This document shows positions 4,961 to 40,920 of a DNA stretch of 40,920 bases, piece by piece. Under the pieces are notes generated by a model. That model was not told the DNA's origin, searched no databases, and worked only from the letters and a program-made list of their open reading frames with translations. This DNA comes from a virus (taxonomy: Duplodnaviria > Caudoviricetes). Every line of letters starts with the position of its first letter. Position 1 is the first letter of the stretch. Position numbers and translations under genes: made by a program. The stretch spans positions 1 through 40,920 of IMG/VR virus record IMGVR_UViG_3300021086_000010; one strand, written 5' to 3'.

Positions 4961-5668
4961 TTGATCCCAGCCCTGATCGCCGTGAGACATGGCGCCACGG
5001 CTTGGAACTCGGAGACCCTGGGCCAGGACGAACGTCTCCGGGGGTGGACGGATCTGCCGCTCACTCCCCGGGGAATGGCCGAAGGAAAGGCGCTAGCAGC
5101 CCATCTCTCTCCCTTGCCCATCAGAGACGTATATACCTCCGACCTGAAACGAGCTACCGCAGTAGCCTTAAGCGTCGCCCAGCAGAATGTCGGCCGTCCG
5201 GCGGTCAGCATGGCTATGGCCCTCCGTCCCTGGAACGTCGGCCAGTGGGCTGGACAGCCGGTTAGACGTGTCTTGAAAACCATGCTCCAGTATCAAGGTG
5301 CTCTCCAAGATCGCCCTCCACCCGGCGGAGAGCCCTTCCGGGCTTTCCTCCAGCGTTTCCTTCACTTTGTCGGTCCCCGCTTCCAGCAGGCCATCGACCG
5401 GGGTCCGATTGCCCTGGTCTCCCATACCAGGAATCTCCGGGTGTTGGACGCCTGGATGAAAAAGGGCGGTCAGGGGACGGAGTTGGATAGCAAAATCATG
5501 CTGGATCGGGAGCACGTGGGGACCGGCTCGGGCTTGATGTGGCTGCACGACGGTAAAGCCTGGCAACGGCATGAATTGGGAAACACTTCTCGCAACGGCG
5601 CCGTCGGAGCAGAGAAGCAATACGATACTAGCAAAATGTCTCGGCAGTTGAGAGGAGCCGGCGGATGA
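4961..5668 (+). CDS. Histidine phosphatase (phosphoglycerate mutase family)
   Basis: VRHGAT.WN, RGWTDLPLTPRG, YTSDLKRA, PPGGE and LVSH motifs. Confidence 0.92.
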   Translation: MIPALIAVRHGATAWNSETLGQDERLRGWTDLPLTPRGMAEGKALAAHLSPLPIRDVYTSDLKRATAVALSVAQQNVGRPAVSMAMALRPWNVGQWAGQPVRRVLKTMLQYQGALQDRPPPGGEPFRAFLQRFLHFVGPRFQQAIDRGPIALVSHTRNLRVLDAWMKKGGQGTELDSKIMLDREHVGTGSGLMWLHDGKAWQRHELGNTSRNGAVGAEKQYDTSKMSRQLRGAGG

Positions 5669-6378
5669 AAGCAGAAATCGTCTCCTACGATGCCGGCAAG
5701 AATAACTCGGATCTGGAGCTTGCCCGGGGACGCATTCTCCGGGGTGGAAGTTGGAAGCAGCAGCGAGTCGTGGTGCTTATCCCCAGCGCTGCAATGATCT
5801 CGGCCAAGGTTGCCCTCAGTCACTGGAACGTCATGTTTCCTCCAAACCAAGCCGTTCATCGGATGCTGGCCCTGGGGCTGGAGGTGGGCGAGGCCTACAG
5901 TCAGTGTATCGAGATGATCCTCTCCCATCCGCAACTCTCCGGGTGGGAATACATCTTGACCATGGAACACGATAATATCCCTCCGCCGGATGGTCTCTTA
6001 CGACTGCTCGCTGATATGGAGACGCATCCGGAATTTTCCTGTATCGGCGGCATATATTTTACCAAGGGACCGGAGGGGGTCCCGCAACTCTGGGGCGACC
6101 CCACTGATCCGCAATTTAATTGCAGGCCTCAACCGCCCCGCCCCGGGATAAATGAAACATGCGGAGTCGGGATGGGCTTCAATCTCTGGCGCCTGTCCAT
6201 GTTCAAGGATAAGGCTCTTCGGCGGCCGTGGTTCAAAACGATAGCCTCAACCACCGAGGGAGTGGGTACTCAGGATCTTTATTTCTGGAGCGATGCGCGG
6301 ACCCATGGATATCGCTGTGCGGTTGATTGCGATGTTCGGGTGGGCCACCACGACCACGTAAACGACGTGACTTGGTGA
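5665..6378 (+). CDS. Glycosyltransferase, GT-A fold (GT2-like)
   Basis: YILTMEHDNIPPPD (DxD-like), GVGMGFNL, TQDLYFW, VDCDVRVGH; ATGA coupling. Confidence 0.8.
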   Translation: MKAEIVSYDAGKNNSDLELARGRILRGGSWKQQRVVVLIPSAAMISAKVALSHWNVMFPPNQAVHRMLALGLEVGEAYSQCIEMILSHPQLSGWEYILTMEHDNIPPPDGLLRLLADMETHPEFSCIGGIYFTKGPEGVPQLWGDPTDPQFNCRPQPPRPGINETCGVGMGFNLWRLSMFKDKALRRPWFKTIASTTEGVGTQDLYFWSDARTHGYRCAVDCDVRVGHHDHVNDVTW

Positions 6379-6384
6379 GATAAT

Positions 6385-7161
6385 ATGGCTCTATACGGAG
6401 CACGGGCTGTTGATTTTCCAGATACTTTCAAATCCGCTGCGCTCTCTCGGTTTGAGCCTTACCCATTTCTCACTACTGCGACTGCTTTCTCCTCGCATGC
6501 ACCAGCCACCTTCTTTTTCCATCCAGTGCTTCTGGCGGCTCCGGTTCAGATTGCCAATATCAACTTCTTCAAGTCGCTTAGCGTCTCGGCTCCCCAAGCC
6601 ACGTCTGCAGCTTCTACCGGCTCCGAGGGCTATTCTTACTCGCACGGGTTCACCCTCTTCACCAGACAGGATTCTTCAGCGAACTCTACTAATCTCTCCC
6701 AGATTAATACCGCCTCGGTGGGCCTTTCGGTCACGGTCGGGTATAGCTCTACCTCGCAAGTAATGGGGATGAGCTGGGTAACTGATACCACCGGAGGGAT
6801 TTCCAGCCTTTCCACTACCTCTAACGCGGCCAACTGGTCCAACTCTCTCTCTGGCCTCTTCCGGGTAGCTATCCCATTCCAGGCGGTACTCTCGGCTGGA
6901 GAGTACTTCTTTGCTCATGCTCACTCCTCGACTGCGGCGACCTCCAATAGCGCGGTTACCCTATTGTCTATCTCCAACCTGCATGTAGCCCCGCAGCTAA
7001 CCACCTTCATCAATCTGGGCGGGAGCGCTTCGGTTACCTCTGCTCAGATCGGGATCGGCCTAGGAGTAGCCTCGGCATTGACCACCAACGCCTCCATGGC
7101 TGGATCGGTCATCTCCGGCGGTACCGTCAATTTCTGGGTGCAGGAGATGTCGGCTCTGTAG
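6385..7161 (+). CDS. Ser/Thr/Ala-rich beta protein, probably virion-associated
   Basis: 258 aa, very S/T-rich with few charges; LSAGEYFFAH beta-sandwich-like segment. Confidence 0.65.
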   Translation: MALYGARAVDFPDTFKSAALSRFEPYPFLTTATAFSSHAPATFFFHPVLLAAPVQIANINFFKSLSVSAPQATSAASTGSEGYSYSHGFTLFTRQDSSANSTNLSQINTASVGLSVTVGYSSTSQVMGMSWVTDTTGGISSLSTTSNAANWSNSLSGLFRVAIPFQAVLSAGEYFFAHAHSSTAATSNSAVTLLSISNLHVAPQLTTFINLGGSASVTSAQIGIGLGVASALTTNASMAGSVISGGTVNFWVQEMSAL

Positions 7162-7168
7162 GGGATAA

Positions 7169-7558
7169 ATGATAACCCGGATCCCTCGTCTTGGCCGCTG
7201 TCCGCGCTGTGGTGCGCAGCTTATGCGCGATCGGAATGGTTATCGATGTCAGTCTGACGGCGACTACTTTCCGGGAGCCGTGAGCATTAATCCGGTGGCC
7301 GCTATTATCGTGCAGGCCTGTCGCGATCTGTCGCAATCGGACGCCGAATGGTTGGTCACGCGGGAATTGGAAGTTGTTTCCGTTTCTGCTCCTAACCCGG
7401 GAACGGCGCTGACGACAGCCGAAGCGCGGGCGATATGTGCTCTGGCTTGGGGCCATGGTGGACGAAAAGACGATCAAGATAGCGCTTTAGTGAAGCTTCG
7501 CCAACTTGCTGAGTCTGATGGGGTAAAATGGGAACGTGGTCTTTGGCTGCACTCGTGA
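7169..7558 (+). CDS. Hypothetical protein with N-terminal Zn ribbon
   Basis: CPRCG..L......YRC; lies in the operon. Confidence 0.65.
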   Translation: MITRIPRLGRCPRCGAQLMRDRNGYRCQSDGDYFPGAVSINPVAAIIVQACRDLSQSDAEWLVTRELEVVSVSAPNPGTALTTAEARAICALAWGHGGRKDDQDSALVKLRQLAESDGVKWERGLWLHS

Positions 7559-7691
7559 GTTTCGAGCATGAGGTTAATGGCATGAAGACCACGATCAGGG
7601 AAATCCATGTCCATCTCTGAACTAGAACTGGAAGTAGAACGCTACCGGAGGATGTTGCTGGATTCTCATTACGCGAAGAAGGAGATCCAAA

Positions 7692-7943
7692 ATGGAGAAT
7701 GGAGCACCCACTCCGATCAAGATGGCCACCGACCAGGCGGTGGTGGTGTTCTACTACGACCTGGCCATCCATCTCCTCTCGGGGATGCAGAATCAACTCC
7801 GGCTGTTCAAGCAAGACAGCCCAGCCAACCAGTTCCAGCGGGTAATGGAACTGCTGGCGGAGAAGCGCAACGGGTTCCTCAAGGAAACCCAGAATCGGAT
7901 ACAGATCGTTCAGGCGGCCCAGGCGCCACTTCGGTCCAACTAG
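7692..7943 (+). CDS. Hypothetical helical protein (83 aa)
   Basis: AAGGAG RBS before ATG 7692; more protein-like than the overlapping low-complexity frame. Confidence 0.7.
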   Translation: MENGAPTPIKMATDQAVVVFYYDLAIHLLSGMQNQLRLFKQDSPANQFQRVMELLAEKRNGFLKETQNRIQIVQAAQAPLRSN

Positions 7944-7966
7944 CCCCTTTCGTTCTGCAGCCTCCG

Positions 7967-8482
7967 TTGAAATTGGACTTGGGCTGCGGCAAGAATAAAA
8001 AGGAGAGCTTCCTCGGGGTAGACTGTCTCGACTTTCCCGGAGTAGACTATAAAGTCGATCTGGGGTCTGAGCGCTGGCCTTGGGAAGACTCCTCGGTTGA
8101 TGAAGCCCACTGCTCTCATATGCTAGAGCATCTGGTTCCTAAAGAGCGGATTCACTTCGCTAACGAGCTATGGAGGGTGCTCAAGCCGGACGGGAAGGCG
8201 TTGATCGTGGTGCCTCATTGGGCTTCCTGCCGGGCTTATGGAGACCTGACCCACCAGTGGCCGCCAGTCTCCGAATTCTGGCCACCTTACCTGCAGAAGA
8301 AATGGCGGGAGGAAAATGCTCCACACAACTCCGGATATGAGTGCAACTTTGATTGTCTACAACCCGGCTATTCGATGCATCCGGAACTCTTATATCGAAA
8401 TGATCACTTCCGTACTTTAGCTCTACAGTTCGGCAAAGAAGCAGCGTTGGATATGATCTTTACGCTGGTCTGTAGGAAGTAG
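7967..8482 (+). CDS. Class I SAM-dependent methyltransferase (type 11-like); start uncertain (frame open from 7607)
   Basis: KLDLGCG motif I, WPWEDSSVD, SHMLEHL, ELWRVLKPDG, DLTH. Confidence 0.88.
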   Translation: MKLDLGCGKNKKESFLGVDCLDFPGVDYKVDLGSERWPWEDSSVDEAHCSHMLEHLVPKERIHFANELWRVLKPDGKALIVVPHWASCRAYGDLTHQWPPVSEFWPPYLQKKWREENAPHNSGYECNFDCLQPGYSMHPELLYRNDHFRTLALQFGKEAALDMIFTLVCRK

Positions 8483-17348: not shown

Positions 17349-18317
17349 GTGCCCAAGACTGCCGTCATCGTTACCCCCGCAGCTGGTGATGGGGTCACTG
17401 TTGCCTTCACTCTGGCTTCCGGAGTGGTCAACGAGGACGTGTACGTTGACCGTATCCACCAGAAGCCGACCACCGACTATTCGATTGCCACTACTACCCT
17501 TACCTTCGTCGTTGCTCCCCCGGCCGCAGCGCTCATCGAGATTTATGGCGATCCGGTGGGGGTACTGGCGGCCGCTGGCCGGGTAGCCAGCCAAACCGGA
17601 TTCGCTACCGCTAAGACCATTATCAATCGAACGGCAATTCAGTGTGGATTGGCTGCGGTGGCTGACCCGGTAGCTTCTACCGATACCAACTTTATCCAGC
17701 TGGTTGAGCTATTAAACATGGTGGGTGGAGAGCTTCTCCAAGAGCACGAGTGGACCCAGCAGATCGTGGAGACCACCATCTCCACCGCTAACGCTGCTAC
17801 TCAGTACGCCCTCCCGGTCGATTGGGACCGGATGCTCAACCAGACCCACTGGAATCGAAGCACCCGATTCGTGATGATCGGCCCGCTGTCTGGGCAGGAA
17901 GTGCAGTATCTCAAGGCCCGCCTGGCCGGGGTGCTGGTCCAAGTAGCTTACCGCATTCAAGGGAATGTGATTACTTTCCCGGTGGCTCCGGCAAATAGCC
18001 AGGTTCTTGCCTACGAGTATATCTCCAATCTCTGGGTCTGGCAGGCAGGCCAAGCCAGCCCCAACCAGAGTTCCATCCTAGCCTCGACTGACATTGTTTT
18101 GTACGATCCGGAGTTGGCTATCTCCTGGCTGCGCCATGCTTTCCGGGAAGCGAAGGGCTTTGACACTACCGCCGAGCGGGAACGCCGGCAGACTCTTCTG
18201 GAAGCGGTTATCGCTAAGAACGTGGGCTCCAAGATTCTCGATCTGGGCGGAATCGGCTTCAACGCCGATCACCTGATCGACGCGGCCAATCTTCCGATTA
18301 CAGGTTACGGGCAGTGA
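17349..18317 (+). CDS. Tail tubular protein A / head-tail adaptor with N-terminal extension
   Basis: YALPVDW.R....T.WNR, YEYIS..W, P.TGYG C-terminus; synteny. Confidence 0.8.
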   Translation: MPKTAVIVTPAAGDGVTVAFTLASGVVNEDVYVDRIHQKPTTDYSIATTTLTFVVAPPAAALIEIYGDPVGVLAAAGRVASQTGFATAKTIINRTAIQCGLAAVADPVASTDTNFIQLVELLNMVGGELLQEHEWTQQIVETTISTANAATQYALPVDWDRMLNQTHWNRSTRFVMIGPLSGQEVQYLKARLAGVLVQVAYRIQGNVITFPVAPANSQVLAYEYISNLWVWQAGQASPNQSSILASTDIVLYDPELAISWLRHAFREAKGFDTTAERERRQTLLEAVIAKNVGSKILDLGGIGFNADHLIDAANLPITGYGQ

Positions 18318-23405: not shown

Positions 23406-24302
23406 ATGAAACATCTCCCATCGATCATCCTCGGCCTCTTGGCCGGGGCGTTCTTCTCTGCGGCCGGCGTGGCGATAGCTTCACGGAATGCGGCTGGCAC
23501 ATTCTCGCTTTTTACCCCGGGCAATCCGGTAGTCACTGCCACCACTATCTCTTCGGCTTGGGCGAACAACACATTAAACGACCTGGCCACGGAAATGACT
23601 GACTCTCTTTCCCGATCCGGCAAGGGTGCCATGCTGGCTAGCCTGCAGCTCTTCGACGGAACCGTCACGTCTCCGGGGCTCAATTTCGGATCGGCGGCGG
23701 GCTCGGGCCTGTATAAGATCGGCACCAACGACTTTGGATTTTCCGTCAACCAGGTAAAGAGTACGGAGTGGAAGACGACCGGATTCGCGGTCACGGCCGT
23801 GACCGGCGGCAGCGCAAGCGCGTGGGTTAGCTCCCCAAGCGCCACGCAGCAGGCGCGGTATATGCTTCAGGACCAGGGGACCGACAAGTTCGGGCTGGTG
23901 AAACAAACCGACAACTCAGCGCTGTTCTTCGATTTTGCGAACAGCCGTGCCATCTGGAGTGTGGCAACCGGCGCTACGGCTCCGATGACCATAGATGCCG
24001 GTGCGAAGATCGGCGCCAGCGGCACGGCGATTAGCGCAAGCTTCCGGGGCACCATGAGCATTACGCCCGGGACGGTTATTGCTGCCCAATGTGTAAGCCA
24101 GACCCTTACCCTTACCGGTGCTACCGCCGGATCTGATTGTCTTTTGACAGCACCGGACGCAGGCGGCACTTCTTCGGATTTCTTGATTCCGCGTTGTTTT
24201 GTCACTACCGACACATGTAACATGCGGCTATGCAACTCGAGCACCGGATCTGTTGTAGATAACACCGCCAGGACATACGCCTGCCGAGTATTTAATACTT
24301 AG
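23406..24302 (+). CDS. Tail fibre protein with N-terminal signal peptide and six-Cys C-terminal domain
   Basis: SRNAAGTFSL..PGNPVVTATTISSAWANNTLNDLATEMTDSLSRSG is a podoviral fibre anchor motif; DGTVTSPGLNF..SGLY repeat; preceded by a 25-aa hydrophobic leader. Confidence 0.8.
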   Translation: MKHLPSIILGLLAGAFFSAAGVAIASRNAAGTFSLFTPGNPVVTATTISSAWANNTLNDLATEMTDSLSRSGKGAMLASLQLFDGTVTSPGLNFGSAAGSGLYKIGTNDFGFSVNQVKSTEWKTTGFAVTAVTGGSASAWVSSPSATQQARYMLQDQGTDKFGLVKQTDNSALFFDFANSRAIWSVATGATAPMTIDAGAKIGASGTAISASFRGTMSITPGTVIAAQCVSQTLTLTGATAGSDCLLTAPDAGGTSSDFLIPRCFVTTDTCNMRLCNSSTGSVVDNTARTYACRVFNT

Positions 24303-24311
24303 TATCATACC

Positions 24312-24758
24312 TCAATGTGCAGCTATCAACGTAGTTGTCAATTTAAGCATCACGCCGCATCCGCTCGCGCTCCCCAGGCCCTGCGCCGTAAGGGTATTCC
24401 CGTTGAGCATTAAAATGCCAGAGAAATAGGTAAAGACTACAGCGGAACAGGCCGTAAACGCAATCGGTGGACATCTCAACTGGCCATCCCATTGAGCATG
24501 CTGGCCCGTACCGATAGCAACGACGGAACCGGATCCGTCGGGACATACGCCAAGAACAACAGCACGATCGCGAGATACGGAAATATCCAATCGCCCAATA
24601 TAGCTGGATGGTGGATTACCCTCAAATACAACGCTAGTCGGTCCAACCCATGTTCCGCCAAATCCCGGATCTAGGGGAGGTGGAGGTGGCGGTGGGACAC
24701 TGCCGGTGGGTGATCCGCCACAAGCAACACACAGCAACAATACGCTTAATGCACGCAT
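24312..24758 (-). CDS. Lipoprotein encoded antisense to the late operon (moron-like)
   Basis: MRALSVLLLCVA-C lipobox, poly-Pro linker, beta-rich domain with four more Cys. Confidence 0.8.
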   Translation of the reverse strand: MRALSVLLLCVACGGSPTGSVPPPPPPPLDPGFGGTWVGPTSVVFEGNPPSSYIGRLDISVSRDRAVVLGVCPDGSGSVVAIGTGQHAQWDGQLRCPPIAFTACSAVVFTYFSGILMLNGNTLTAQGLGSASGCGVMLKLTTTLIAAH

Positions 24759-25091: not shown

Positions 25092-25186
25092 AGTTGCTCC
25101 TCATCGCCCTAGGCTGCGGAGTGGCTGCTTACATCGGCTTCGTAATCTGGTTTGCCTGGCGCTTCTGGCGCAAGGAAAAGCGATGA
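25088..25186 (+). CDS. 32-aa single-TM peptide
   Basis: MKLLLIALGCGVAAYIGFVIWFAWRFWRKEKR; ATGA overlaps at both ends. Confidence 0.7.
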   Translation: MKLLLIALGCGVAAYIGFVIWFAWRFWRKEKR

Positions 25187-25407
25187 AGTGGTTTTGTTTG
25201 CTTCTCATGATGGGAGCGCAGTCCGAAGATCCGCCAGTCCCGCCCGACGCCGGGATTCATGAGATGTGTCGAGATCGAGCGCATAGGGCACATTGTGATT
25301 GTTATAGTCACTGCGGCGAACTTGATGACCCAGGGCCGCGCGATATGTGTAAACAGGGCTGCGAAGATGCCGAGCAACGGGAGATGGCCAGATGCGACGC
25401 CACGTAG
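25183..25407 (+). CDS. Small exported Cys-rich protein
   Basis: Short hydrophobic leader, PPVPPDAG linker, seven Cys in the mature part. Confidence 0.7.
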   Translation: MKWFCLLLMMGAQSEDPPVPPDAGIHEMCRDRAHRAHCDCYSHCGELDDPGPRDMCKQGCEDAEQREMARCDAT

Positions 25408-25416
25408 AGGTACAGC

Positions 25417-25848
25417 ATGAATGTGCCGCTTTTGATCAGCGAACTGAGCCGTGACGAGGGTATCCGTCTCAAGCCCTACACAGATAGCGTTGGTAAGATA
25501 ACCATCGGCATTGGCCGTAACCTCACCGATAAGGGTATCTCCCGGGAGGAGGCTTACCACTTGCTCAACAACGATATTGATGAGGTGATCGGGGAATTAG
25601 ATAAGCGACTTCCTTGGTGGCGCAGGCTGGATGATGTCCGGCAGCGAGTGCTAGCAAATATGGCTTTTAACCTAGGTATTACCAAGTTACTGACCTTCGA
25701 GCGGACCTTAGCCTCGATCATGTTGGGGAGTTTCGGAGATGCCGCTACCGAGATGTTGCAGAGCCAGTGGGCCAAAGAGGTAGGCCCCAGGGCGCAGCGG
25801 CTGGCCCAGATGATGCGAATCGGCCTTGCCCCAGAGGAGATGTCCTGA
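25417..25848 (+). CDS. Endolysin, T4-like lysozyme (GH24)
   Basis: DEGIRLKPYTDSVGKITIGIGRNL has the E-x8-D-x5-T triad; NMAFNLG, S.WA..VG.RA.RL. Confidence 0.95.
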   Translation: MNVPLLISELSRDEGIRLKPYTDSVGKITIGIGRNLTDKGISREEAYHLLNNDIDEVIGELDKRLPWWRRLDDVRQRVLANMAFNLGITKLLTFERTLASIMLGSFGDAATEMLQSQWAKEVGPRAQRLAQMMRIGLAPEEMS

Positions 25849-27791
25849 TGCGCAGAGAAACACTTCTGGGCGGTTTGGTAGCTGCTCTAATCGTGGCCGG
25901 CGGGGTGGTGGCGGTCAGCAGCGATCGGTATATTGGTCAGCAGAGCCGCTTTGCCGCCAGCGGGACTGGCGCTACTTCGCGTACCATCGAGAGCAAGCTC
26001 AGGGACAGCATAAGCGTCAAGGACTTTTCTGGATCTGATTTCTGCGCTCAATTAACTACCGCGATTGCCGCCGTTGGGGCTGGCGGCATCATTCACGCGG
26101 AATCCGTCATTGGTACTCAAGTGTGCGCCAGCAACTTAACGATCAACCAGAGTGGCTTGACAATCATATTGCCGTCCGCTCAAATCAATATCGGCGCTAA
26201 TCAGATCGTTGTGCCTGTCGGCACGTACAATGTGGCCATGATTGGGTCCGCTCCGTTTGGCAGCTATAATGCAGAAACGCAGACCGGCACATTTATCAAC
26301 TATACTGGCTCAGGGGTTGCCGTAGTGGTTGGGGATTCGACCGGAGATACCAACGGCTTTACTATACAGGATGTAACGATCAATATCAATACGGCTGGTT
26401 CCGCCGCTATTGGCCTACAGCTTAACCGCGCCGGAGAATGCAATCTGACTCGCCCTCGGGTGATCGGGTTGGCCACGGCGAATACGCAGAAGCTCATCGA
26501 CCTTGAAGGCTTCACCAATTTCACGGGCTGCAAGATTGATCAGCCGTGGTTGTCACATGGTTTAAACGCAATTTATTGGGGAGCGGCGGCTAACTCGACT
26601 TGGGTGATCGGTGGATATTACCTTGGCCTGAATAACGGTACCGGGACCGCGCTCAACTTCGCAGGGGCGGTGGGCAACCCGGCCGTGGGCAATGTCGTGA
26701 TTGGCGGCGACGTAGAACAATGGGGCACGGTGATGAATTTCGATTATGCTCGTGACACCCAGATTTACGGGCTGCGAACCGAGACTTCTACCAATCTTGC
26801 CACCGCGACCGCGAACTCCACTCGTAATCTGACATTTACAAATGGTATTACCCTGCCGATTACAGATAACGGCACCTACAACGGTTTTGCTACCGTATTG
26901 AGTCCGGTGATCAGCCAAACCAAGATCCAGATCCATAACAAGCAGGATGTACCCTCTAACCTCTGGGTGGGCGCTGGTCTGACGGCAGATCAAGACAGAT
27001 TCATCAGCTTTTTAGACAAGACCGAGAGTCCGCAATGGCGCTTCTGGGTAGACAACGCGAATGTCTGGAGCCTTCAGCATCAGACCGGTCTAATCAGGGA
27101 ACAGCTCGCATCGGGCAATTCTTTCTACAACGCGGAGGCTGGCGGCGGAATTCTTTTCAACAGCGGAACCAACACCGGAACCGGAGGAGTGCAATTCTGG
27201 AGTGGAGGTGCTTCGCCGACGAAAGTGGGAGCGGTCGATTCAATCGGCAGGTATCTGCTTGGCGTGGTACTTCAAGCTAATCTTGGCACTCCCGGCAATG
27301 GCACGATCGTCTACTGTTCCGACTGCACTATTGCGAATCCTTGTGCGGGCGGTGGTACTGGGGCGTTTGCACAAAGAATCAATGGCATATGGGTCTGTGA
27401 TGGCGGTCCAGCTTCCGCCGGATCCGAGCATGATTTCTGCGCTTACAATGCCGCCAACCTGGCTGGCGCTACCGCATTTGCCAGAAGTGTAGCTACCAAT
27501 GCATCTACGCTGACGGCAGATTCGACCATTACTCACGACATCGCCGGAGCCGGCACCGGGACCTTTGTCGCCAAACTGTGCAGCGATGGGACGACCTGTG
27601 GAGCAGGGAATGTTTATTTAACCTGCACGGCCGGAGCGAACTGCGCCACGGCAGCAGCTGGCCGAATTGATGCCTGTACAGTAACAAAAGCGGCGGTACC
27701 GGCCGCAACAACGCTGACTTGGAGCGTAGCGACAGCTTGCGGAACGACCGATCCGGGCATCAACGCCTGCGCTCACTTCACGACTCCCTAG
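25848..27791 (+). CDS. Tailspike/depolymerase-like beta-helix protein with N-terminal signal/TM segment and Cys-rich C-terminus
   Basis: TGATG coupling at 25848; GTGATSRTIESKLRDSISVKDF tailspike neck motif; N/G/T-rich beta-helix; 16 Cys. Confidence 0.8.
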   Translation: MRRETLLGGLVAALIVAGGVVAVSSDRYIGQQSRFAASGTGATSRTIESKLRDSISVKDFSGSDFCAQLTTAIAAVGAGGIIHAESVIGTQVCASNLTINQSGLTIILPSAQINIGANQIVVPVGTYNVAMIGSAPFGSYNAETQTGTFINYTGSGVAVVVGDSTGDTNGFTIQDVTININTAGSAAIGLQLNRAGECNLTRPRVIGLATANTQKLIDLEGFTNFTGCKIDQPWLSHGLNAIYWGAAANSTWVIGGYYLGLNNGTGTALNFAGAVGNPAVGNVVIGGDVEQWGTVMNFDYARDTQIYGLRTETSTNLATATANSTRNLTFTNGITLPITDNGTYNGFATVLSPVISQTKIQIHNKQDVPSNLWVGAGLTADQDRFISFLDKTESPQWRFWVDNANVWSLQHQTGLIREQLASGNSFYNAEAGGGILFNSGTNTGTGGVQFWSGGASPTKVGAVDSIGRYLLGVVLQANLGTPGNGTIVYCSDCTIANPCAGGGTGAFAQRINGIWVCDGGPASAGSEHDFCAYNAANLAGATAFARSVATNASTLTADSTITHDIAGAGTGTFVAKLCSDGTTCGAGNVYLTCTAGANCATAAAGRIDACTVTKAAVPAATTLTWSVATACGTTDPGINACAHFTTP

Positions 27792-27799
27792 GAGAGAAT

Positions 27800-28033
27800 A
27801 TGTGGCCACTTCTTAAGACCTTAGTTCATGAAGCGCTCTTCGATGCCGATCGGGCCAGACGCTGGCTGCGGGGGGCTACTTTCTGGCTGGGCGGAGCGGC
27901 AGTTACGGTGGCTGCAGCCGGATGGGAAGCAGCTTCCCATTGGACCCTACGTGACTGGCTGGGTAGACTGGCCTTGGCCTCAGTGGTGGGTCTGGGCGGG
28001 CTGATGAGCTCGCGGAGCGGAGAGCCGAAATGA
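27800..28033 (+). CDS. Holin candidate (two TM segments)
   Basis: GGAG RBS; 77 aa with two hydrophobic segments; adjacent to the spanin gene. Confidence 0.6.
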   Translation: MWPLLKTLVHEALFDADRARRWLRGATFWLGGAAVTVAAAGWEAASHWTLRDWLGRLALASVVGLGGLMSSRSGEPK

Positions 28034-28542
28034 AGTGGGCAATCCTACTACTCCTCTGCGCTTGCGCCAGTCATCGACAAGAGGCCAGCCAGGTTGACGA
28101 GAAGGCTCAAACCTGGGATACCCATACCTTCTCGGGTGACACGGAAGTCCACAGGACCCAAGAGCCCTCTAAAACCACGACTACAATAGAGGAATTTAAT
28201 CCCCTGGAGGAGTTTGCGGAGTCGAACGCTCTGGGCGATAGCACTGGGCCGGTGAAAACTCGTGTTACTAAGGTGCCCGCGCATCTCGTCAAGCGTACTA
28301 CGGTTGTGACCGAACGTGGCCAAGTGACCACCGAGACCTCCAAGAAGGCCGATTCCAGCGCCGCAGCCTCGTCCACAGCAACGCTGGCCGGGAAGGCGAC
28401 CTCCGAGTCATCCTCCCGGCCGAGTCTCGGATTTGGGGTCCTGGGCCTCTTAGTGGCGGGCGTGGGTGTTTGGCTGGTCCTGACTCGTGGCACCTGGCTG
28501 CCGAAGGCGCTGGGATTGGCCAGACGCTTGCTTGGTCTCTAA
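28030..28542 (+). CDS. Unimolecular spanin (u-spanin, T1 gp11-type architecture)
   Basis: MKWAILLLLCA-C lipobox with non-Asp +2 residue, Thr-rich beta periplasmic region, C-terminal TM (LGFGVLGLLVAGVGVWLVL) and basic tail. Confidence 0.8.
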   Translation: MKWAILLLLCACASHRQEASQVDEKAQTWDTHTFSGDTEVHRTQEPSKTTTTIEEFNPLEEFAESNALGDSTGPVKTRVTKVPAHLVKRTTVVTERGQVTTETSKKADSSAAASSTATLAGKATSESSSRPSLGFGVLGLLVAGVGVWLVLTRGTWLPKALGLARRLLGL

Positions 28543-40266: not shown

Positions 40267-40464
40267 TTAGTCCCACTCGATCCTTCCATCATCGAAGATA
40301 GTTCCCCAACCCTGGCAGGGATCTTCGAACCGCCTGCCCTCTTCGGGCAAGCGAGCTCGCTTCCGCCGAGGCAACCGCTCTTCGGAAGAGCGCTCGAAGG
40401 ATTCCTGCTGCTCGTTGAAAATCGGATTGGTGATCTCGGGCATGGGAATCGACAAGTCTTTCAT
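40267..40464 (-). CDS. Hypothetical protein
   Basis: GAGAGGGTACCACA-ATG at 40464. Confidence 0.7.
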   Translation of the reverse strand: MKDLSIPMPEITNPIFNEQQESFERSSEERLPRRKRARLPEEGRRFEDPCQGWGTIFDDGRIEWD

Positions 40465-40549
40465 TGTGGTACCCTCTCCGGGCCTTTGGCTAGGTAAGGC
40501 GAGCCCGACCCTGCGCAAGACGAGTCATTCCTGCGCAGAGGCAAGTCGC
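40465..40549 (-). promoter_or_regulatory. Two-hairpin early intergenic element (divergent second stem)
   Basis: TTGC, CTCTGCGCAGGA/TCTTGCGCAGGG, GGGC..GCCC, RBS. Confidence 0.6.
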
Positions 40550-40732
40550 TTATCTGTGCTCCACCCGGCCGTCTTGGTGGACCCGAATGGTGTGTCCGCA
40601 GCCGGTATCGAAGTCGCGGAATGACGATTTGCCCGTCTCGGCGTTTTCGGCCAGCTTGCGCTTCAGGCAATTCGCGTAGGCCAATTCCTCGGCATCGAGC
40701 TCGACCGGAACGATTGGCTTCTTGGTATCCAT
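40550..40732 (-). CDS. Hypothetical protein
   Basis: GGAGGGTAGCACCA-ATG at 40732. Confidence 0.7.
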   Translation of the reverse strand: MDTKKPIVPVELDAEELAYANCLKRKLAENAETGKSSFRDFDTGCGHTIRVHQDGRVEHR

Positions 40733-40738
40733 TGGTGC

Positions 40739-40806
40739 TACCCTCCTGCTGGAGCATGAGCGCTCCGGGATGCCCACGACTCACGTGGGACACCCGCAAC
40801 GTTCAG
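40739..40806 (-). repeat. 68-bp exact direct repeat, copy 2
   Basis: Identical to 1940-2007. Confidence 0.95.
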
Positions 40807-40920
40807 ATTCTTACCCTCGACCGTGACCACGACCACGACCCCGCCCACGACCTCGACCCCGCCCACGACTCCGCTCCCAACCTCGACCCCGCCCATGACC
40901 ACGCCCACGACCTTGACCCC
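40803..40920 (-). CDS. 3' part of the junction-spanning RS/W-repeat peptide
   Basis: Reads GSRSWAWSWAGSRLGAESWAGSRSWAGSWSWSRSRVRI-TGA; in frame with 92..1 when the ends are joined. Confidence 0.75.
   Translation of the reverse strand, partial: GSRSWAWSWAGSRLGAESWAGSRSWAGSWSWSRSRVRI

Follow-up and report, generated by a model that had tools for sequence, protein, structure and literature searches.

A tail-fibre gene with a predicted signal peptide in an Mx8-like podovirus, and a possible assembly route through two compartments

The fibre locus and its genomic setting

The window, which is the whole 40.9-kb stretch of DNA analysed here, is a virus record with a CheckV completeness of 99%. Its genes run in the order terminase, portal, capsid, adaptor and nozzle-slot gene, followed by three ejection-slot genes and then by P0001 (Table 1), which thus stands where a podovirus has its tail fibre, after the adaptor, nozzle and ejection genes. 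An AGGA ribosome-binding site lies ahead of the P0001 ATG, the stop of the upstream gene is 7 bases away, and the gene holds the sole copy of its N-terminal anchor domain in the genome. The capsid protein was 54% identical to that of Myxococcus phage Mx8 and 56% to that of BUCT555, and this identity suggests that the window's phage and Mx8 belong to the same lineage, for which excerpts of PMC10386132 describe a classic podoviral structural module. The window is an Mx8-like podovirus genome, and P0001 occupies its tail-fibre slot.

Pfam and PHROG gave no match for P0001, and PDB sequence searches gave no meaningful match for P0001 or for the alignments A1 and A3; promoter and terminator scans of the window stayed at chance level. 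Among the 16 Mx8 and Mx9 proteins scanned, only p64 matched tail-fibre families, and Mx8 p75 was rejected as a second fibre, since it had no fibre family match and sits among early genes. A wrong frame at P0001 was also rejected, and an assembly artefact was ruled out because a contig from a separate soil study (X3) crosses the junction between the leader and the anchor with zero differences.

A search of 401 Myxococcota genomes matched 7, and the leader was present in 5 of 6, the seventh being a frameshifted copy. Leader-bearing relatives are also present in Corallococcus and in one more Myxococcota genome, which makes a myxobacterial host plausible for the window's phage. A frameshifted leader-bearing fibre gene was seen at 9209-9533 of L085, a Corallococcus genome, and no adjoining virion genes were matched there.

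Several other features of the window were recorded. Short C-rich repeats stand at both ends (1-100 and 40821-40920), and the ORFs at 1485-2000 and 40461-40799 have identical first 20 residues, which may reflect a terminal repeat or an assembly effect. Upstream of terminase, 4961-8482 encodes a histidine phosphatase, a glycosyltransferase-like protein, a 258-aa protein rich in Ser/Thr and free of Cys, and a methyltransferase, possibly a module for virion or DNA modification. At its N-terminus (17349-17600) the adaptor carries an additional domain of about 85 aa, to which a second spike might dock; similar extensions occur in the leader phages L087, L094, L128 and L133 and in the leaderless L086, and are absent from Mx8. 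Right after the fibre, on the minus strand, lies a moron-like gene (24312-24758) for a lipoprotein-like product that has 6 Cys and a poly-Pro linker and may be an exclusion protein, and 25183-25407 encodes a 74-aa lysis-cassette protein with a short hydrophobic start, 8 Cys and no family match.

Table 1 Features of the fibre locus, of the late genes around it and of their Mx8 and Mx9 counterparts
Feature	Position	Strand	Basis
Tail-fibre gene P0001, 298 aa	23406..24302	+	Genes upstream: capsid, adaptor, nozzle-slot, ejection-slot; homologues Mx8 p64, Mx9 p14
Signal peptide (predicted, Sec/SPase I), residues 1-25	23406..23480	+	n-, h- and c-regions visible in the sequence; pattern across the family; our own heuristics
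Conserved N-terminal domain, residues 26-76, putative virion anchor	23481..23633	+	Begins at residue 2 of 239 relatives that lack the leader; helix 50-70 (model)
Beta-rich shaft, residues 77-204	23634..24017	+	Both models show strands, in part at low confidence
Tip beta-sandwich, three predicted disulfides 229-276, 245-264, 271-293	24018..24299	+	pLDDT mostly >90; fold match; Cys covariation
Tail adaptor, likely fibre docking partner, without signal peptide	17349..18317	+	PF24175 SU10_adaptor, E 3.5e-05, below curated cut-off; phrog_6013
Endolysin without signal or SAR segment	25417..25848	+	PF00959, E 1.9e-11; N-terminal hydropathy 1.07
Second leader-bearing late protein P0120, 647 aa, 16 Cys, beta-helix tailspike-like	25848..27791	+	N-terminal hydropathy 2.81
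Candidate unimolecular spanin	28030..28542	+	Lipoprotein signal and C-terminal hydrophobic segment, sequence anatomy only
Mx8 p66, p67 and Mx9 p15, Cys-rich, leader-bearing, behind the fibre	L001 15389-16587; L002 6467-7192		

Two forms of one fibre family

The original prediction had cited a motif with which the anchor of podoviral fibres begins, and this motif proved to be real, as leaderless relatives of P0001 start with M-[SAP]-R-N. For the family survey, 348 anchor-bearing sequences were pooled and dereplicated at 70% to 300; contig-truncated copies, the window's own locus, the spurious L021, the frameshifted L085, L014 (no called start) and L011 (58-residue leader, no Cys) had been left out beforehand. 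Among these 300 relatives, 59 had a leader, 239 started at the anchor without one and 2 were unclear, and the share of the leader form is inflated because the search started from a leader-bearing query. The two classes are sharply separated. In a second set, which was ranked by the anchor alone, was not dereplicated and partly overlaps the first, 79 loci were found and the leader was present in 8 of the 77 usable ones. A deep profile search was swamped by the shaft repeat, so its matches served only as leaderless controls. On the anchor tree, in which only 18 of 145 branches were starred, 14 changes were needed, compared with 46.6 after shuffling.

The family is a mosaic, in which the N-terminal domain is constant and the fibre C-termini vary, with S74, collar and gp53-like domains among the leaderless relatives; the first shaft segment is a repeat common to many fibres. 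Conservation within the fibre is highest in the anchor, and from its position and the mosaicism we infer that the N-terminal domain of P0001 is the virion anchor. Solved structures gave no match to it in PDB sequence searches, and fold searches barely probed this domain. In 13 other leader-bearing loci the fibre slot was kept wherever flanks were present, and the core virion genes there carried no signal flag by our heuristic.

The leader as a predicted signal peptide

The signal-like leader that had been noted directly before the anchor was found again: it has 25 residues, among them a single Lys, reaches a hydropathy of 2.62 over 11 residues, bears A-I-A at -3 to -1, and is followed by S-R-N-A-A-G. 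All 59 leaders of the relatives had an 11-residue hydropathy of 2.13-3.35, and the first 8 residues were net positive in 56 of them. Their lengths ranged from 19 to 51 aa (more than 40 aa in 5/59), and their median identity to P0001 was 33%, compared with 66% for the anchors. Ala stood at -1 in 56/59 leaders (background 15%). Pro was never found at +1 (0/59), whereas 135 of the 225 fibres without a leader had it right after Met, or 53 of 131 once the repeat-rich clade from the deep profile search was removed, and the second set gave 0/8 and 38/69, respectively. Pro at +1 hinders export processing, as stated in excerpts of PMC10269814. Both small residues at -3 and -1 and the absence of Pro at +1, as in substrates of Sec and SPase I, were therefore observed, and a Tat signal was rejected, since the twin-arginine pattern occurred in 0/59 leaders. 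We consider it very likely from these family patterns that P0001 is exported through Sec and cleaved after Ala25, and the predicted cleavage would produce the same S-R-N start that the leaderless relatives have after Met removal.

The original prediction also stated that no alternative Met lies at the junction. This is so, but Val22, four residues ahead of the junction, is a GTG codon that had been overlooked, and our heuristic detects no ribosome-binding site for it. Six other leader loci had an in-frame start within 10 codons, and a conserved internal start was rejected because none is kept at the junction across the other leader-bearing loci. Such starts would be of use to a fibre with a dual fate, in which leaky export (Arg at +2) or internal initiation leaves a cytoplasmic share for the virions and the exported share acts as a decoy. 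The early mature region fits this idea as well, as its net charge is +1 in P0001, +1 in 42/59 relatives and +2 or more in 15/59, and excerpts of PMC10269814 describe a net negative region as favouring export, a tendency and not a rule, so that the positive charge is a point against efficient export. However, the internal starts vary in place, have no ribosome-binding site and are missing from Mx8 and Mx9, and a hydrophobic leader that stays uncut would be expected to keep the protein in the membrane. We therefore regard a dual fate as quite unlikely, and export with cleavage after Ala25 as the better account of the leader.

The cleavage site itself bears on a further alternative, in which the exported fibre would stay tethered to the membrane, where particles collect it or from which they leave with membrane fragments. 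In 2/59 relatives (P0017 and P0021) a lipobox replaces the type I site directly before the anchor, and in P0003, P0005, P0018, P0082 and L011 the leader is long and contains a further stretch ahead of the anchor. Against this, a type I site without Pro at +1 is found in 57/59, and Pro at +1 matters only if the leader is cut, so a tethered fibre seems improbable to us. P0017 and P0021 are, in their own right, predicted lipoprotein tail fibres.

Fold and cysteines of the tip

All six Cys of P0001 (229, 245, 264, 271, 276 and 293) fall within the last 70 residues, as had been described. The best fold match of the tip was the phi297 tailspike's C-terminal domain (4ru5; Z 8.9, rmsd 2.5, 87 aligned), so that P0001 has a receptor-binding type of tip at the level of fold, with a middling Z. 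Foldseek gave no match against PDB at E 0.001, and the tip was not found within longer proteins, which is weak evidence.

Across 22 tips, Cys 229 and 276 were present together in 14 and absent together in 8, Cys 271 and 293 were present together in 16 and absent together in 6, no tip had only one member of either pair, and Cys 245 and 264 were invariant. The leaderless fibre of L235 has the same tip type with no Cys, and a weaker tip homologue in L070 has no Cys at the six positions. From this covariation the pairs 229-276, 245-264 and 271-293 are, with high probability, disulfides. It could be argued that the leader is incidental and that the cysteines either serve as metal ligands or are oxidised by air once the fibre is released, since excerpts of PMC13576161 report disulfide-rich virions with no export described. 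But the 59 leaders have retained signal features despite their divergence, Cys disappear in twos, the leaderless tip is Cys-free, and metal sites would hardly shed their ligands in two independent pairs, which leaves this explanation with very little probability. Thus, export, cleavage at the proposed site and disulfide pairing, three of the steps in the original prediction, all gain support from patterns across the family.

Counted without regard to shared ancestry, a final 110-residue stretch with at least four Cys was found in 34/59 leader-bearing and in 3/239 leaderless fibres, and in 4/7 and 0/54 in the second set; among leader-bearing fibres with tips unlike that of P0001, this was the case in 16/40. 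Even Cys counts occurred in 48/53 leader-bearing and 46/150 leaderless fibres. The expected co-occurrence of leaders and Cys-rich tips was thus seen in the counts, but its independence from ancestry was not, as the tree gave only 2 supported independent pairs, too few to reach significance.

The reason that had been implied for export, namely that it serves disulfide formation, was weakened. The last 110 residues are free of Cys in 6/59 leader-bearing fibres and the whole mature chain in 3/59, two full-length prophage copies in Myxococcota genomes are Cys-free, and virion disulfides are known without export as well (excerpts of PMC13576161). Export would therefore not be solely for disulfides, and the tip cysteines look like a consequence of export and not its cause.

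Late genes and the route of the fibre to the virion

The fibre is not the only leader-bearing late protein. P0120 has Atlas look-alikes among pectate-lyase-like beta-helices (lead level), and in Mx8 and Mx9 the proteins p67 and p15 match the GDSL/SGNH family below its cut-off. Because the fibre, P0120, p66, p67 and p15 all bear leaders, no cytoplasmic candidate for host recognition was found in the window, Mx8 or Mx9. The Cys-rich 30-residue C-terminal module of the P0120 tip recurs in unrelated long proteins (P0121-P0132), many of them with signal-like starts.

An endolysin without an export signal needs a large-hole holin. The signal-less endolysin of the window therefore implies a large lesion, an opening where two compartments could mix; the candidate spanin had no family match. 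Fibres and tailspikes of P22 and T4 attach in vitro to finished particles. We propose that P0001 would be exported through Sec, cut after Ala25 and folded with three disulfides in the periplasm, where trimeric fibres would wait, while heads and tail hubs would be built fibreless in the cytoplasm; once the holin opens the inner membrane, the fibres would dock on the particles during lysis. The window, Mx8 and the provirus G004 have one anchor gene each and no leaderless copy, and joining at lysis is suggested because no leaderless copy was present in the genomes searched. On these grounds, assembly in two compartments with the fibre joining the virion at lysis is, in our judgement, somewhat favoured.

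The same export would also suit a fibre that remains in the envelope, where it would mask the receptor and so block superinfection or the loss of progeny on cell debris. Phages do export receptor-blocking proteins, T5 Llp being one of them. Export is well supported by the sequence patterns, and the Mx8 record labels five virion proteins without p64 among them, with the adaptor and nozzle genes likewise unlabelled. A decoy, however, needs the tip and not the anchor, whereas conservation is highest in the anchor, whose exact start is regenerated by cleavage, and no leaderless copy turned up in the window, Mx8 or G004. Receptor masking is unlikely for these reasons, and docking at lysis remains our preferred reading. 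If it is extended to the podovirus lineage that includes Mx8 and Mx9, head and tail hub would be cytoplasmic, all fibres and spikes for host recognition periplasmic and lysis the last assembly step, for which we see about even chances. Particles would then gain infectivity only once the inner membrane fails, and would rely for it on the host's Sec and Dsb systems and its signal peptidase.

Comparison with known systems

The closest relatives in culture are the fibres of the Myxococcus phages Mx8 (p64, AAK94399.1) and Mx9 (p14, WFG54121.1), which share the anchor with P0001 at about 46% identity over residues 1-122 and have a leader of 28 aa that ends in A-S-A before T-R-N, but carry a different tip with 2 Cys instead of 6. 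The records name these proteins p64 or putative tail fiber protein and do not mention export. Mx8 and Mx9 are P22-like podoviruses according to excerpts of the myxophage review PMC6070905, in which nothing on fibre export appears. Leaderless Mx8/Pr-type fibres, such as that of Stenotrophomonas phage BUCT555 (QQM14856.1), share the N-terminal domain and the gene slot but begin directly with the anchor, in many cases with Pro, and seldom have Cys-rich tips. The C-terminal beta-sandwiches of phi297 gp61, LKA1 gp49, KP32 gp38 and R-pyocin fibres resemble the P0001 tip with Z from 8.9 to 6.7, but at only about 10-16% identity, and as Z is middling, we take only the fold to be shared.

In the filamentous phage M13, the virion protein pIII binds the receptor, has a Sec signal and forms its disulfides in the periplasm, and in this respect it is the closest working analogy to P0001. 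Unlike P0001, it is membrane-anchored, is added during extrusion without lysis, and has an unrelated fold in an unrelated class of virus.

The tailed phages Milano and PD491P1 have disulfides in structural proteins like P0001, but no export is described in the portions of text available (PMC13576161; PMC10811340), where neither text contains "periplasm" and the one on Milano does not contain "signal peptide" either; there, virion disulfides are ascribed to host isomerases or air. Both terms are also absent from the main text, as far as available, of a 2026 myxophage survey (10.64898/2026.09.14.751636). No description of exported tail fibres of tailed phages was found in the literature covered, most of subscription journals and of older Mx8 work lying outside it. 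Thus, virion disulfides are already known, and what appears to be new is an exported-type variant of a podovirus tail fibre.

In the prevailing view, tailed phages assemble wholly in the cytoplasm, whereas here the only recognisable fibre gene has an export signal. The family offers leaderless controls and two cultured members with a harmless and genetically tractable host, and since Mx8 and Mx9 both carry the leader, the idea is testable now. If the fibre is not on the virion, it would still represent an undescribed exported fibre function. If it is, phage morphogenesis would gain an extra step that ties infectivity to the secretion and disulfide enzymes of the host, the evolution of disulfide-rich receptor-binding domains would find an explanation, and annotation by signal peptide would be misfiling real virion proteins.
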